NCBI GenBank assembly: GCA_965262725.1
Contig: OZ253555.1
Span: forward strand, 3,008,001 to 3,072,000
Direction: 5' to 3'
Length of the DNA stretch: 64,000 bases
From: Dehalococcoidia bacterium
Lineage (GTDB): Bacteria > Chloroflexota > Dehalococcoidia > UBA2979
A program made the position numbers and the translations under genes. Shown piece by piece: positions 53,310 through 58,192 of the stretch (positions are counted from its first letter, which is position 1; every line of letters starts with the position of its first letter). The notes under the pieces are model-generated. The model did no database searches. It was not told the origin of the DNA and worked only from the letters and a program-made list of their open reading frames with translations.

Positions 53310-54350
53310 ATGTTTAGATCACGCATGATACGCGTAATGTTTGCGCTGGTCGCGCTACTTGCCGTATCGCTTTTCGCAACGTCGTGCGGTGACGACGAGA
53401 CCACGGACGCACCAGCGGGCGATGCCGTGGCGGAGGTTGTCGACAAGCCAACGATCGTTTTCTCGGACCTGAACTGGACGAGTGCCCAAGTCCAGAACAG
53501 GATAGCGCAGTTCATCGTTGAGAACGGCTACGGGTACGAGACCGACGCCATCCTCGGCGGAACGCTGCCGAACTTCCAGGGCCTGCTCAAGGGGGACATC
53601 CACGTCACGATGGAGATCTGGCTCCCCAACCAGAACGAGCAGTGGGACCCGGCCGTGGCCAACGGCCAGGTGGTCTCGATTGGCAAGAGCCTGGGTGAGG
53701 ACTGGCAAAGCGCCTTCGTCATCCCCCGTTACGTCGCCGACCAGTACCCCGGCCTCAAGTCCGTCGAGGACTTGAAGAACGACGAGTTCAAGTCCCTCTT
53801 CGCCACCATCGACTCGGGCGGCAAGGCTCGCATCGTGGGGTGCGTGGTGGGCTGGTCCTGCGAGGTTGTGAACCTCGCCCAGTACGAGGCGTACGGTCTC
53901 GGCGATCACGTGGAGGTGGTGAGCCCGGGCTCGCAGGAGGCGCTCTTCGCGGATCTGCAGGGCCGCTACGATGACCAGGAGCCGTGGCTCGGCTACATGT
54001 GGGGCACGGCCGACCCCGCGCTGGTGCTCGACCTGGTCCGCCTGGACGAGCCTCCTTACTCCGATGAGTGCTGGTTCACCACCAAGGCGTGCGGTTACAA
54101 GGACGCGACGATCCTGATCGCCGTCCACCCAACCGTGGTCACAGACGCTCCGGACGTAGTCGAGTTCCTCCGCAACTGGGGTTTCAACATCGACGTCTAC
54201 CGGGGCGTCGCCCAGTACATCGCCGAGAACCCCGGCATCGAGGCGCAGGACGCGGCCGTCTGGTTCCTCAAGAACAACGAGGCCGTCTGGTCGACCTGGG
54301 TTCCCGCCGACATCGCCGAGAAGGTGATGGAGGCCCTGGCGGAGGCCTAG
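53310..54350 (+). CDS. proX: Glycine betaine ABC transporter substrate-binding lipoprotein
   Basis: FATSC lipobox, NWTS, GDIHVTMEIWLP, GCVVGWSC, YMWG, APDVVEFL. Confidence 0.88.
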   Translation: MFRSRMIRVMFALVALLAVSLFATSCGDDETTDAPAGDAVAEVVDKPTIVFSDLNWTSAQVQNRIAQFIVENGYGYETDAILGGTLPNFQGLLKGDIHVTMEIWLPNQNEQWDPAVANGQVVSIGKSLGEDWQSAFVIPRYVADQYPGLKSVEDLKNDEFKSLFATIDSGGKARIVGCVVGWSCEVVNLAQYEAYGLGDHVEVVSPGSQEALFADLQGRYDDQEPWLGYMWGTADPALVLDLVRLDEPPYSDECWFTTKACGYKDATILIAVHPTVVTDAPDVVEFLRNWGFNIDVYRGVAQYIAENPGIEAQDAAVWFLKNNEAVWSTWVPADIAEKVMEALAEA

Positions 54351-55113
54351 GGTAAGGAGCCGACAGTCGGGCGCCCTATCGCGCCGGTCGCGCCAGCGAC
54401 CCGAGCGAGGCGCCCGGCACAGCACACCGCGGCGGCCGGCGATTCCGTTGGGCAGGTCCTGCCCACGGGTCGCCGGCGGTCGTGTTGGGCCGCAGCGGGG
54501 GCGGATCCCCTGCTCCCACAGGAGGCGAGGGCCGTAGGCGTGCCGCCGTGGGGGGGTGGGCGTACGCGCCCTGCGCACCTCGCCCGCGGCAGGCGTCGGG
54601 CGCCTGCATCGACGTTGAGGGCAGGCGGCCGGCGCCCGCCCCCTAGCTAGACCGCCACACGCAAATGATGCGAGGATCGCCGTCATTGCGCTCGTCCTCG
54701 GCTCACACTGTCGGTGGAGACGGGGCGCGCCCGCGCGTGCTCACGCGCGATGGCGGCTCCCGGTGAGGCGCAGGCTGACATGGTCTTCTCCGGGACCGTC
54801 GTCCGGGACGGCCGCCCGGGCACGGTCGTCTAGCGGGAGAACGAACACCATTTCGGTCCTCACCCAGTTCGACGTCACAGACTGGTGCAAGTGGTCACGG
54901 CTCGAGACGATCGTCACCGAGCAGACAGGGGCAGTCGGCCGTTCGTGCCGCCCACATCAATCCGAGTTCGGTAGATGTCGCATACGCCTATGGAGGTCAC
55001 GGGGCACCCTCCGGCAAGGCCTCCTGACCCGCCCCCGAGGCCTCCTACCAGGGGGGGTCCCTATCTTCTCTGTCAAGGGCCTCGAGGTTGTGAGTCGAGG
55101 TGGCCGGAGGCCA

Positions 55114-56328
55114 TCAGGCAGCTGCCGCGTTGTGGCGAGATTGCGTGGCTCGGTAGGGCTGGCGCAAGCGAAGCATGGCCAAGATGACGTCGCAGCGCCG
55201 GCGCGCGAGGCAGATGACGGCGGCGTTGTGTTTCTTCCCCTCGGCCCGCTTCCGGTCGTAGAAGGCCCTCGATGCGGGATCGCGCAGCGAGGCGAAGGTC
55301 GCCAGGAACATCGCGTTCTTGAGGCGGTGGTTCCCGCGCCGGCTGCGCGCTTCGCCGCGGAGACTCGACCCGGACTGGCGGGTCACCGGAGCGAGGCCGG
55401 CGTAGCTCGAGAGCCTCGATCCGTTCGCGAACCGGGCGCCGTCGCCGATCTCAGCGAGGATCCTCGACCCGGCCCGGGGGCCGATGCCCGGGAGCGTGCC
55501 GAGGATGCGTCCGAAAGGGTGTGCCTCGAAGAGCTCCTCGATGTCGGCCGCGAGCCGCTTCCGTCGCTCCAGCGTGCGGTCGAGTTCGACAACGACCTCG
55601 GAGATCACGCGCCCCATCACGGCCTCGACCGGCACGACGACGCTCTGAGCTCCGAGCGCCTGCGTCACGGCGACGGTGAGGGCCTTCGCCAGCCGCGGCG
55701 AGCGCTTCCGGATCGTGCTCTCGATGCGGCCGCGGCCGGCCTTCGCCAGTGCCTGGGGAGCCGGGTAGCGTGCCAGGAGATCCCGGACGCCCGGATGGTG
55801 CAGCCTCGGGCCCAGAACGCGTTCCAGCGCCGGGGAGATGCCCGTGAGCGCGTCCCGGAGCCGGTTCGACAGCCGTGTGGCGTCCGTGGCGAGGTCGGCG
55901 TCGTAGCCGTTCAGGACGCGGAGCTGCGCGAGCAGCTCGTCGTTGCCGGCGTCGAGCCAGTGCACCTGGTGGCGCCGGATGCGGCCGGTGTCGGCGAGGA
56001 CGAAGGCGTCGCGACGGTCGGTCTTGGCCTCGCCCGGGTAGAGGTCGGCGGCGCGGCGCATTATCAGGCCGGGCACCTACGCCACCGGCACACCGAGGCG
56101 CGCAGCGACGGCGAGCACGAGGCTGGCGAGCGAGCCGGGCTGGTCGACGACCAGGGCAGGGGCACCCAGGGCCTGGGCACGGCCGAGGAGCGTCTCGATG
56201 TCGGCCTCGTCGTTGGCCACGGCGCCGGCGAACAGCGACTCGCCCGCGGCGTCCAGCGCGTCAGCGAAATGTTCTGCCTTGCCGATGTCGAGGCCGATCC
56301 ACACGTCGATGTCATCGGGCGTTCCCAC
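55114..56328 (-). pseudogene. IS110 DEDD recombinase with an in-frame TAG at 56079..56077
   Basis: GAGGAG RBS then GTG; IGLDIGK, VVDQP, VA*VPGLIMRR, KTDRRDA, LPGIG, YAGLAPVTRQSGSS, GNHRLK, LARRR all in one frame. Confidence 0.9.
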
Positions 56329-56561
56329 TGCGGCTCCTCTCGGGTGCTTCGTCCACTCGTCCGGAAGGCCGCAGGTGCGCGCGCCGTCATCCACCTTACG
56401 AATCAGCGATCAGCTCGCATGTCCCTATCAGAGGTTCACGCACCGAGCAGTGCCGGTGGCAACACCCCCCAGGCCGTCAAGCGACAAGGGGCACTGAGCC
56501 ATGCCGGCACTGCCGGACTCCCGGCCCGGGAAGCTACCCAGGCCGCAGAAAGAAGGTAAGG
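56329..56561 (-). ncRNA. Predicted bridge/seek RNA region in the IS110 non-coding left end
   Basis: Internal GATAGGGAC (56429..56421) matches the right end; GTAAGG (56399..56394) is complementary to the left-end CCTTAC. Confidence 0.7.
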
Positions 56562-57023
56562 GGGTCGTAGGCCCCCGTACCCGGACGCGACCACTCAAGC
56601 GAGAGCGCAGGACGACCTCGATGCGCTGCCTGAGCCGAAGCACGACCTGCCCGTGCCCGGCTGGTTGATCGGTTCGCTCGCAGCGGGCAGCTCCGCGTTG
56701 GCCGCAGCAGGACTGGTGGCCATCCGCCGCCGGCACTACTGGAGCACGAGTCCCTGATGCGGCCGGCTCCGGCGGCTATTGCACTGGCGCCCCCGCGGCC
56801 CGGCCGGTGTCGCTCGCAGCCGATGGGGCGCCGTCAATGCTGCCGCTCGCCGTCGCGCTTCTCGAGGGCGTCTTCTTGGGCCACTCCGCGGGGCGAGCTG
56901 GCAGCGGCCACAGGCCGCTCGCTGCCGCCCGTGTGGGGCCCAGGTCGCCGCTATGCGGGGATTCCGCCACGGCCCCCCCGGGCGACTTCGCCCCGGGCGC
57001 CGCGATGCGGAACTCACGTGAAG

Positions 57024-57057
57024 CGAGGGGGGAGCGCCCGCGGGCGCTCCCCCCTCG
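57024..57057 (-). terminator. Perfect 34-bp palindrome, probable terminator of the amino-acid-binding protein gene
   Basis: CGAGGGGGGAGCGCCCG/CGGGCGCTCCCCCCTCG, 37 nt after the stop at 57095. Confidence 0.6.
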
Positions 57058-57094
57058 TATCGGTCGGTGCGTGCGCACCGTACTCCGCTAGAGG

Positions 57095-58192
57095 CTAGCG
57101 GTACGGCATCGCGTAGAGGATGCCCCCGCTACCGGGCGGGCACCCACTCTTGTCCTCGGTGTAGAGGGCGTTCAGCGTGCACGCGCGATCGATCCCCACC
57201 GGCACGATCGTGCGGTCGTAGATCTCGCCGTAGTTCCCCACCGCCGCGAGCGCCCGCTGCAGGAACTGCGGGTCCACCGCGAAGCCCAGGTCCGCAACCT
57301 CACCGCCGCCAAACGAGACGCCCAGCAGACGCGCCACTGCCGTGCTCGGCGGGTTCGCCGCCTGCTGCGCCACGTTGCCCGACGTCACCCCGAGCTCCTC
57401 GGCGAAGATCAGGCCGTACACGACCCAGTTCACCACGTCCTTCCACTCGCTGTCGTAGTCGCGCACGCCCGGCGCGAGTGGCTCCTTCGAAATGATCTGG
57501 CCCAGCACCCGGTACGCCGACGGGTCGTCGAACGCCGAGATCCGCGATGCCAGGTTGCTCTGGTCCGCCGTCCACACGTCGCAGCGACCCGCCACGAATG
57601 CGTCCTGCGTCTCCGCGTCCTCACCGCCGAGAGGCGTGTAATCAAGACCCAGCTCCGCGAAGTGGTCAGACAGGTTCTGCTCCGTCGTCGTCCCCGACTG
57701 CACGCAGATCGTCGCCCCGCCCATGTCCAACGTGGACTGGATGTCGGAGTCCCCCTGCACCGCGAAGCCCTGGCCCGTGAAGAACGTCGTCTGCGCGAAG
57801 TCCACCGCGCGAGACGCATCGCGCTCTGCCGTCACCGTCGTGGTGCGGATGAGCACGTCGATCTCCTCCGACGCCAGAAGCTCGAAGCGCGTCGCCGCGT
57901 TCGAGGCGTCCACGAAGTTGACCTTGCTCGCGTCGCCCAGAACCGCCGCCGCCAGCGCCTTGCAGAACTCGACGTCGAACCCGACCACGCTGCCGTCCGG
58001 CTTCTTGAAGCCGAAGCCCGGCTGCGTCTGCTTCACGCCGCAGTTCAGCTCGTCGCGGTCCTCGATGGTCTGCACCGTGTTCCCGCGCTCGCTCGCCCCT
58101 TCACCGCCGTCGTCGTCCCCGCCGCACGAGACGGCGACGAGCGACACCACCGCCACCAGCACGGCAGCGGCCACACCAAGACGTATCCTCAT
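57095..58192 (-). CDS. General L-amino acid ABC transporter substrate-binding lipoprotein (AapJ/BztA-like)
   Basis: AVSC lipobox, GFDVEFCKALAAA, ICVQSGTTTE, ISKEPLAP, VGNYGEIY. Confidence 0.9.
   Translation of the reverse strand: MRIRLGVAAAVLVAVVSLVAVSCGGDDDGGEGASERGNTVQTIEDRDELNCGVKQTQPGFGFKKPDGSVVGFDVEFCKALAAAVLGDASKVNFVDASNAATRFELLASEEIDVLIRTTTVTAERDASRAVDFAQTTFFTGQGFAVQGDSDIQSTLDMGGATICVQSGTTTEQNLSDHFAELGLDYTPLGGEDAETQDAFVAGRCDVWTADQSNLASRISAFDDPSAYRVLGQIISKEPLAPGVRDYDSEWKDVVNWVVYGLIFAEELGVTSGNVAQQAANPPSTAVARLLGVSFGGGEVADLGFAVDPQFLQRALAAVGNYGEIYDRTIVPVGIDRACTLNALYTEDKSGCPPGSGGILYAMPYR

Follow-up and report, generated by a model that had tools for sequence, protein, structure and literature searches.

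A probable bridge-RNA insertion sequence of the IS110 family in a Dehalococcoidia genome, with guides that covary with element ends and, in part, with landing sites

Introduction

IS900, IS116 and IS117 are IS110-group elements of actinobacteria, hosts with a high G+C content. In IS621, an IS110-group element of Escherichia coli, a transposase composed of a DEDD, RuvC-like domain and a Tnp domain with a Ser-Gly nucleophile loop is combined with a long left end and a short right end, with a left-end RNA that comprises a 5' hairpin, a target loop and a donor loop, and with a promoter whose -35 and -10 halves are split across the joined ends; these features are taken from the portions of the two IS621 reports that were available (PMC11208160, PMC11208158). 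We here describe a locus of similar layout on the minus strand of a 64,000-nt stretch from a Dehalococcoidia bacterium of the Chloroflexota (contig OZ253555.1, positions 3,008,001 to 3,072,000), a stretch that we call the window. We consider it very probable that this locus is one copy of an IS110-family (IS110-group) insertion sequence of about 1.5 kb, whose left end encodes a bridge RNA with a target and a donor loop. Its protein belongs to the IS110 family, two RNA stems of its left end covary among homologs, and its guides covary with the element ends and, in part, with the flanks. The element is an additional example of an already known kind and leaves the known picture unchanged.

The geometry reported for IS621 in the same available portions, in which a loop pairs through its 5' side with the bottom strand and through its 3' side with the top strand, and in which the 3' guide is followed by two handshake bases, is matched by the window element. 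In contrast to IS621, the alignable sequence is limited to the Tnp domain, the protein has 404-405 aa instead of 326 aa, and the landing site is a C-run or, in a second subfamily (B), the terminal repeat of an IS21-family element. Whereas a CT core is described at both ends of IS621, the family of the window element shares a single C (donor AC, target CC, positions 8-9). Elements of the IS1111 group have the same transposase family and RNA-guided site choice, but according to the available portion of Durrant 2024 (PMC11208160) they have a short left end, a long right end that holds the RNA, and sub-terminal inverted repeats of 7-17 bp. Unlike these, the window element has a left end of 232 nt with the RNA and a right end of 57 nt, and a repeat search of the element yielded no terminal inverted repeat linking the termini. 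By the features that the same source uses to separate the two groups it thus falls with the IS110 group, its left end being long and carrying the RNA, its right end short, and long sub-terminal inverted repeats absent. Landing in multi-copy host sequences is also described for ISPpu9 and ISPpu10, IS110-family elements of Pseudomonas putida, which in the published parts at hand enter repeated extragenic or intergenic, REP-like sequences, where subfamily B enters the IS21 repeat and subfamily A, to which the window copy belongs, homopolymer C-runs.

Results

The initial annotation, which labelled the locus IS110/IS900-type, is borne out as regards the IS110 family by the protein family models, which were scored on open sister copies, the gene of the window copy being interrupted. 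NF033542 ('IS110 family RNA-guided transposase', cut-off 140 bits) reached 199.6 and 218.3 bits. PF01548, the N-terminal DEDD, RuvC-like domain, was matched at the domain level over its full length (1-155/155, E 4.5e-39 in the copy L002 and 1e-38 in L004), and the C-terminal Tnp model PF02371 was also matched. The Tnp domain aligns to that of IS621 (8wt6, E 1.9e-16), with QSGSS lying on the ESGSS of IS621, in which the nucleophile is S241, followed by the conserved G242 (IS621 paper, available portion). This serine is kept in 84 of 86 motif matches among loci L001-L092, the window copy included. A phmmer comparison of the N-terminal domain with IS621 gave no match. The best named relatives are proteins from Nocardia, Gordonia and Streptomyces with 49-53% identity.

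The genome, a single contig of 3.67 Mb with 70.6% G+C, carries six full copies and six fragments of the element. The window copy, L002 and L003 are about 99% alike and form subfamily A; L004, L005 and L006 form subfamily B, which is about 80% identical to A. When the full copies are aligned with their flanks, similarity starts at CTTACC, directly after ...CC, and ends with GGG(A/G)AC-AC, directly before a C-rich flank, the window copy alone reading GGGAC-CC. Because the full copies share sequence only within these limits, we define the element ends by them. The whole insertion then covers 55055..56562 (minus strand), its length being set by an unoccupied target site, and the element proper (CTTACC...GGGAC) covers 56560..55057. 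The dinucleotides at positions 8-9 lie at 56562..56561 (CC) and 55056..55055 (CC; AC in the other five full copies). Read on the minus strand from 56562 downwards, the sequence is flank ...GGGGGCCTACGACC, CC, CTTACCTTC..., and on the right side ...TTGACAGAGAAGATAGGGAC, CC, then flank CCCCTGGTAGG. The non-coding left end was placed correctly by the initial annotation, but its length is 232 nt from 56560 to the GTG at 56328; the 233 nt given there are a count from 56561. The right end, from behind the TGA stop to the last base of the element, comprises 57 nt (55113..55057).

The relation of the left end to the element ends was found as first described. The 9-mer GATAGGGAC lies on the minus strand at 56429..56421 and again at 55065..55057, its only two copies in the window (0.36 expected), and 21 nt further on stands GTAAGG (56399..56394), the complement of CCTTAC at 56561..56556. 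Accordingly named, the left donor guide is GATAGGGACA (56420..56429, minus strand), of the same sense as the right end; the right donor guide with its handshake bases is GTAAG-GT-GG (56391..56399, minus strand), complementary to the left end; and the terminal 9-mer of the right end (55057..55065, minus strand), marked by repeat and covariation, is the left donor sequence. The 5' side of the loop thus corresponds to the right end and its 3' side to the complement of the left end, the strand sense given in the available portion of Durrant 2024 (PMC11208160).

Failure of the guides to covary with the ends among homologs had been named as the finding that would speak against this assignment; covariation was found instead. 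The relatives fall into three groups with left ends CTTAC, GTTAC or ATTAC, and their right donor guides read GTAAG, GTAAC or GTAAT. In 74 of 75 loci the fifth base of the right donor guide is complementary to the first base of the element (C-G 24, G-C 36, A-T 14), with L048 as the exception. At the two variable positions, left donor guide and right end carry the same base in 39 of 42 loci (position 4) and in 42 of 42 (position 8). Thirteen distinct pairs of left guide and right end show a mean match of 8.54 out of 10 compared with 7.78 in shuffles, and 0 of 5000 shuffles reach this value. The same is seen within the genome, where subfamily A has GATAGGGAC and subfamily B ATGGGGAC both at the guide and at the right end.

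That the left end carries a bridge RNA, likewise part of the initial annotation, is supported by stem covariation in 34 homologs and by the published layout, in which a 5' hairpin precedes the target loop and the donor loop comes last. A profile made from the left-end sequences of 19 relatives was searched in 92 loci (80 homologous loci and the genome's own copies). It gave 85 matches, and most of the 80 homologous loci have the region upstream of their transposase gene. The homologs stem from Chloroflexota, Acidimicrobiia, Thermoleophilia, Nocardia, Gordonia and Streptomyces. On the alignment of 34 sequences, two long-range stems are predicted by RNAalifold; 96.9% of their cells are paired, compared with 75.2% in shuffles. 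Compensatory changes occur in 14 of the 20 pairs of the two helices, a number reached by 0 of 500 shuffles, and sliding the partners by 1-3 columns lowers pairing to 30-55%. Helix 1 (56514..56498 with 56460..56447; 15 pairs, nine with compensatory changes, 96.5% of cells paired) closes the target-binding loop (56447..56514, minus strand), which holds the left target guide and the G-run. Helix 2 (GGTGC, 56444..56440, with GCACC, 56378..56374; five pairs, all with compensatory changes, 98.2% of cells paired) closes the donor-binding loop (56374..56444, minus strand), which holds GATAGGGACA and GTAAGGTGG. Both loops are built alike, with a 5' side in the sense of the DNA and a 3' side complementary to it. 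A 5' stem-loop (GGCCTGGG / CCCGGGCC, 56523..56544, minus strand) appears to recur with differing sequences in A, B and in relatives; inner stem-loops of both loops were seen by eye.

We also considered that the repeated motifs might be sub-terminal repeats bound by the transposase and the left end only a leader of the gene. Two protein-binding sites, too, would be expected to give an internal motif equal to the right-end terminus and co-varying with it, and no transcript was seen, there being no RNA run among the listed sequencing runs. Such sites would have no need of internal loops closed by stems rich in compensatory changes, which is where the motifs sit. In addition, the other loop finds its match in host DNA beyond the element, and between A and B it differs in step with the landing site, and the protein belongs to a family for which RNA guidance has been shown with IS621 (available portions of PMC11208160 and PMC11208158). 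On this evidence protein-binding sites are an extremely improbable explanation, and we keep to RNA guides.

In poly-C-targeting elements the left target guide CCCCC (56487-56495) is complementary to the right guide GGGGG (56465-56470), and RNAalifold pairs the two. As a part of the RNA scaffold this pairing was set aside and treated as a by-product of the homopolymer target.

Regarding the target loop, the initial annotation had found no convincing left target guide. A guide does exist at 56487..56495 (minus strand), just after the first stem, where the window copy reads AGTGCCCCT, L002 and L003 AGTGCCCCC, L004 and L006 AAATGGCCC and L005 AAGTGGCCC; in copies of the poly-C type only its C-run matches the flank. 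In subfamily B it is identical to the element's own left flank at 9 of 9 positions in L004, L005 and L006, including an A/G difference. In L015, from another genome, 7 of 9 positions match. The window copy has a private C-to-T change in this guide at 56487, and for its subfamily the sequences support only the C-run part.

The right target guide with its handshake bases (GGGGGG-TG, 56463..56470, minus strand) was identified by complementarity to the flank. Its G6 run (56470..56465) had been suggested to pair with the C-run at the insertion site, and the homologs agree with this: poly-G guides adjoin CCCCCC flanks in 36 of 39 loci and GGGTGG guides adjoin CCACCC in three of four, and L014, inspected by eye, conforms to the same matching. 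Extended by the three bases that follow it, the G-run reads GGGGGGTGT, and the right junction of L002 and L003, ACACCCCCC, is precisely its reverse complement; in subfamily B the guide reads GGGTGGTGT and the junction, in L005 and L006, ACACCACCC. Covariation of the target-loop guides with the flanks is therefore seen for the right guide and for the left guide of subfamily B, but not for the 5' half of the left guide in 19 elements of the poly-C type, to which the window copy belongs.

Mis-set element boundaries or co-conversion could in principle produce such guide-flank matches without any RNA-guided choice of site. In favour of this, the guide-matching flank base of L004 differs from all 14 unoccupied IS21 repeats, and L004 and L006 are not independent of each other, their flanks having been swapped. 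On the other side, the sequence upstream of the 9-11 matched bases varies between copies, unoccupied sites of the same sequence exist without the element, further matches are found in L005 (G) and in L014 and L015 (C, another genome), and the guide of the right side tracks the right flank as well. We hence regard an origin from boundaries or co-conversion as very unlikely and read the matches as RNA-guided site choice.

The elements of subfamily A are located in runs of 8, 10 and 14 C, as reconstructed by arithmetic from the junctions; the genome holds only 13 runs of C or G with a length of at least 9. Subfamily B is located in the second terminal repeat of an IS21-family element of the same genome, which was identified by NF033546 (240 bits) and a Mu-transposase C-terminal domain. 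Fourteen unoccupied landing sites of subfamily B read GAATTGGCCCCACCCCCGACC. No empty site of the window copy, which the initial annotation had suggested locating in a related genome, was recovered among 31 genomes including the window's own, the DNA abutting the element being without match. The distal flank blocks 54200-54373 and 57021-57400 are kept in two of these genomes (G001, G003), where they lie 621-702 nt apart.

The IS21-family element itself is present in about 15 copies (e.g. G000:C1 245310-245420; L004:1460-1500; L006:1-1500), and its end carries two direct repeats of GAATTGGCCCCACC, subfamily B being inserted exactly in the second. In the left flank of L004 (G000:C1, around 1438893) the occupied repeat reads GAAATGG, compared with GAATTGG in all 14 unoccupied sites, and with this change the repeat agrees with the guide of the inserted element at that base; this is a single case. 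Gene conversion from the flank of L006, a rare variant or something else could account for it. A check for the same flank-base conversion in the genome of L014 found only one IS21-like end, which is occupied and allows no comparison. L004 (G000:C1 1438900-1440418) and L006 (1516337-1517856) are inverted copies, and the left flank of L006 joined to the right flank of L004 gives the unoccupied site at C1:1513142. It seems that the two copies swapped their flanks, and an inversion of about 76 kb is thereby indicated.

From the comparison of occupied with unoccupied sites it follows that the inserted string, and hence the predicted circle junction, is ...GGGGACAC+CTTACC. The junction GATAGGGAC-CCTTAC predicted at first did not hold in this form: the canonical string is probably one base longer (...GGGACAC+CTTACC...), because five of the six full copies read GGGACAC before the flank, with GGGACCC in the window copy, and because the unoccupied site sets the inserted length. 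At the left end the variable first base (C/G/A) is always retained, and it changes in concert with the RNA; it therefore travels with the element, with the top-strand cut just 5' of it. The register given here depends on this argument that (C/G/A)TTAC is transmitted with the element.

Two other registers were considered and not adopted. A CC core with an element from CTTACC to ...ACA was rejected, as it predicts three C in the unoccupied IS21 site, and the 14 sites have four. An element starting with TTACC, with a donor core of C plus C/G/A, was set aside since the base that varies remains at the left junction in every case and changes together with the right donor guide.

At positions 8-9 the left junctions carry CC, while the right junctions carry AC in all but one of 44 parsed loci, the exception being the window copy with CC. 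Of the core dinucleotide, donor and target share no more than the second base, C at position 9. At positions 6-9 the donor reads ACAC and the target CCCC or GCCC; both 3' guides carry GU opposite positions 8-9, and the two bases that follow match positions 6-7 of the other partner (GU against donor AC, GG against target CC). These two bases would follow the handshake rule of IS621.

The joined ends had further been proposed to form a sigma-70-type promoter, TTGACA and TACCTT separated by 17 nt, that exists only in the excised circle. Both halves are conserved: the -35 half TTGACA of the right end (55071..55076, minus strand) recurs, always equally far from the right end, as TTGACN in 42 of 44 loci, and the putative -10 half TACCTT (56553..56558, minus strand) is kept as TACCNT in 43 of 44. 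In the predicted joined ends TTGACN-17/18-TACCNT is found in 43 of 44 loci, with a spacer of 17 nt in nine and 18 nt in 34. The spacer is the part that needed correction: it comes out at 17 nt with the end points assumed at first, but measures 18 nt in the window's subfamily. A scan found no sigma-70-like promoter in the integrated arrangement, and by analogy with IS621 the joined ends may function as one.

Most of the stretch is held by 20 listed sequencing runs from nine studies, none of them recorded as RNA; we examined the contigs of four runs. The sequence of the right junction is identical wherever these contigs reach it, although under a 31-nt rule only one contig (X2 record 17) bridges the junction, the others ending 24-30 nt inside the element.

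The transposase gene (55114..56328, minus strand) is interrupted in the window copy by an in-frame TAG (56079..56077), where L002 and L003 read TAC (Tyr). Because of this stop, the window copy is judged to be non-autonomous: it cannot make transposase and could move only with protein from another copy. In L003 a one-base insertion leads to a frameshift. Among the subfamily-A copies the frame is open in L002 alone, where the nucleophile Ser is replaced by Pro (L002:2730-2760). Judged by these sequences, subfamily A seems to lack an active transposase of its own in the genome. In subfamily B the frames of L004 and L005 are open and the Ser is kept.

Together with the TAG, the C-to-T change in the left target guide and an A-to-C change at the right junction, the window copy has seven private changes in all. 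One may ask on these grounds, and with no intact catalytic protein in any subfamily-A copy, whether it is an immobile fossil that retains the anatomy of a bridge-RNA element and can no longer be moved even in trans. The right-junction sequence, invariant in the contigs that reach it (four runs from four studies), also suggests an old, fixed insertion. Against this, the donor sequences GATAGGGAC and CTTAC and the donor loop are intact in the window copy, and L004 and L005, open and with their Ser, have a very similar RNA scaffold, which makes trans-mobilisation conceivable. The TAG allele (56077) and the T allele of the guide (56487) are found in runs X1 and X2, while all contigs of X5 and X10 read the intact letters at both places; this suggests that both changes are recent, bearing in mind that contigs can miss variants and that other copies of the element were aligned at the same places. 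A fossil state is a possibility to be taken seriously, though less likely than not.

Discussion

By homology with IS621, we propose the following course for the circle, the transcript, the RNA-DNA pairing and the chemistry. The element would move through an excised circle, in which the right end (-35, TTGACA) is joined to the left end (-10, TACCTT) and a promoter is formed. This promoter would drive transcription of the left end into a bridge RNA of about 180 nt. The first RNA loop would read the landing site, here a C-run, through the left target guide on its 5' side and the G-run, the right target guide, on its 3' side, and the second loop would read the joined ends of the element. The DEDD/serine recombinase would then exchange strands beside the shared C.

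Several results weigh against the interpretation of the locus as a bridge-RNA element. Taken alone, the repeat of the 9-mer could arise by chance within the element, for the GC-rich stretch of 1541 nt contains five exact direct repeats of 9-12 nt (D11-D15); its significance derives from its place at the very end of the element and from the covariation in homologs. The fold of the single sequence is not unusual (z = -1.5), and a scan of the region against Rfam gave no family beyond noise, with miRNA and SAH models below their gathering scores. In 19 elements of the poly-C type, the window's subfamily among them, agreement between the flank and the first five bases of the left target guide does not exceed that of shuffled pairs at any register from -3 to +3. 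This mismatch is in keeping with the partial ('half-match') insertion described for IS621 in the accessible part of a 2026 preprint, and for the window copy it is a real gap. The -10 half TACCTT matches TATAAT at only three of six positions, A2 and T6 being present, and would fail the scan's own rule of four out of six for the -10 box. All three copies of subfamily A look protein-dead, by the TAG in the window copy, the frameshift in L003 and the Ser-to-Pro change in L002. Finally, neither a circle junction nor an empty-site joint was found in the contigs of the four runs, and no RNA run is listed in which a transcript could be sought.

The junctions bear on how the strands are transferred. 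In IS621 the bottom-strand cut lies four bases from the top-strand cut (IS621 paper, available portion), and with such offset cuts mixed junctions are therefore expected if both strands are transferred; the natural junctions found here are almost all of the top-strand type (CC left, AC right). We tentatively propose, while holding the idea to be somewhat doubtful, that this Chloroflexota-Actinomycetota clade uses a single shared crossover base, that position 8 serves as a third handshake base, that the junctions reflect transfer of the top strand only, and that the sister subfamily kept its donor loop and rewrote its target loop onto the IS21 repeat. A copy-and-paste route by top-strand transfer has been put forward for IS621 in the 2026 preprint, as far as its available part goes. 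If the proposal is true, the top-strand junctions would be field evidence for top-strand-only transfer.

As the locus shows, raw sequence can suffice to recognise a bridge-RNA element, in a reading that survives testing. A natural experiment is found within one genome, where near-identical donor loops are combined with differing target loops and landing sites, C-runs on the one hand and the IS21 terminal repeat on the other, and where single-base guide variants pair with single-base site variants. At crossover position 8, donor and target consistently differ in about 60 relatives, a point that bears on the question of which strands are transferred. These data may be useful background for engineers of bridge recombinases.

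Some further observations were made among the relatives and beside the element. On a Streptomyces contig (L092:2690-2782) an IS110 right end (...CATAGGGGCACC) is followed by CC and then by the left end (GTTATC...) of a different IS110 element, an arrangement that corresponds to a tandem insertion into one C-run. Twelve Streptomyces relatives of 1613-1888 bp (L038, L040, L042, L046, L055, L056, L059, L060, L062, L073, L088 and L090) carry extra sequence between the transposase gene and the right end, seemingly an open frame on the reverse strand. To the left of the element, the 377 nt at 57024-57400 of the window are 100% identical to a repeat at G000:C1:2659215-2659591; this stretch of the window opens with a palindrome of 34 nt and overlaps the 3' end of a gene for a solute-binding protein (PF00497).

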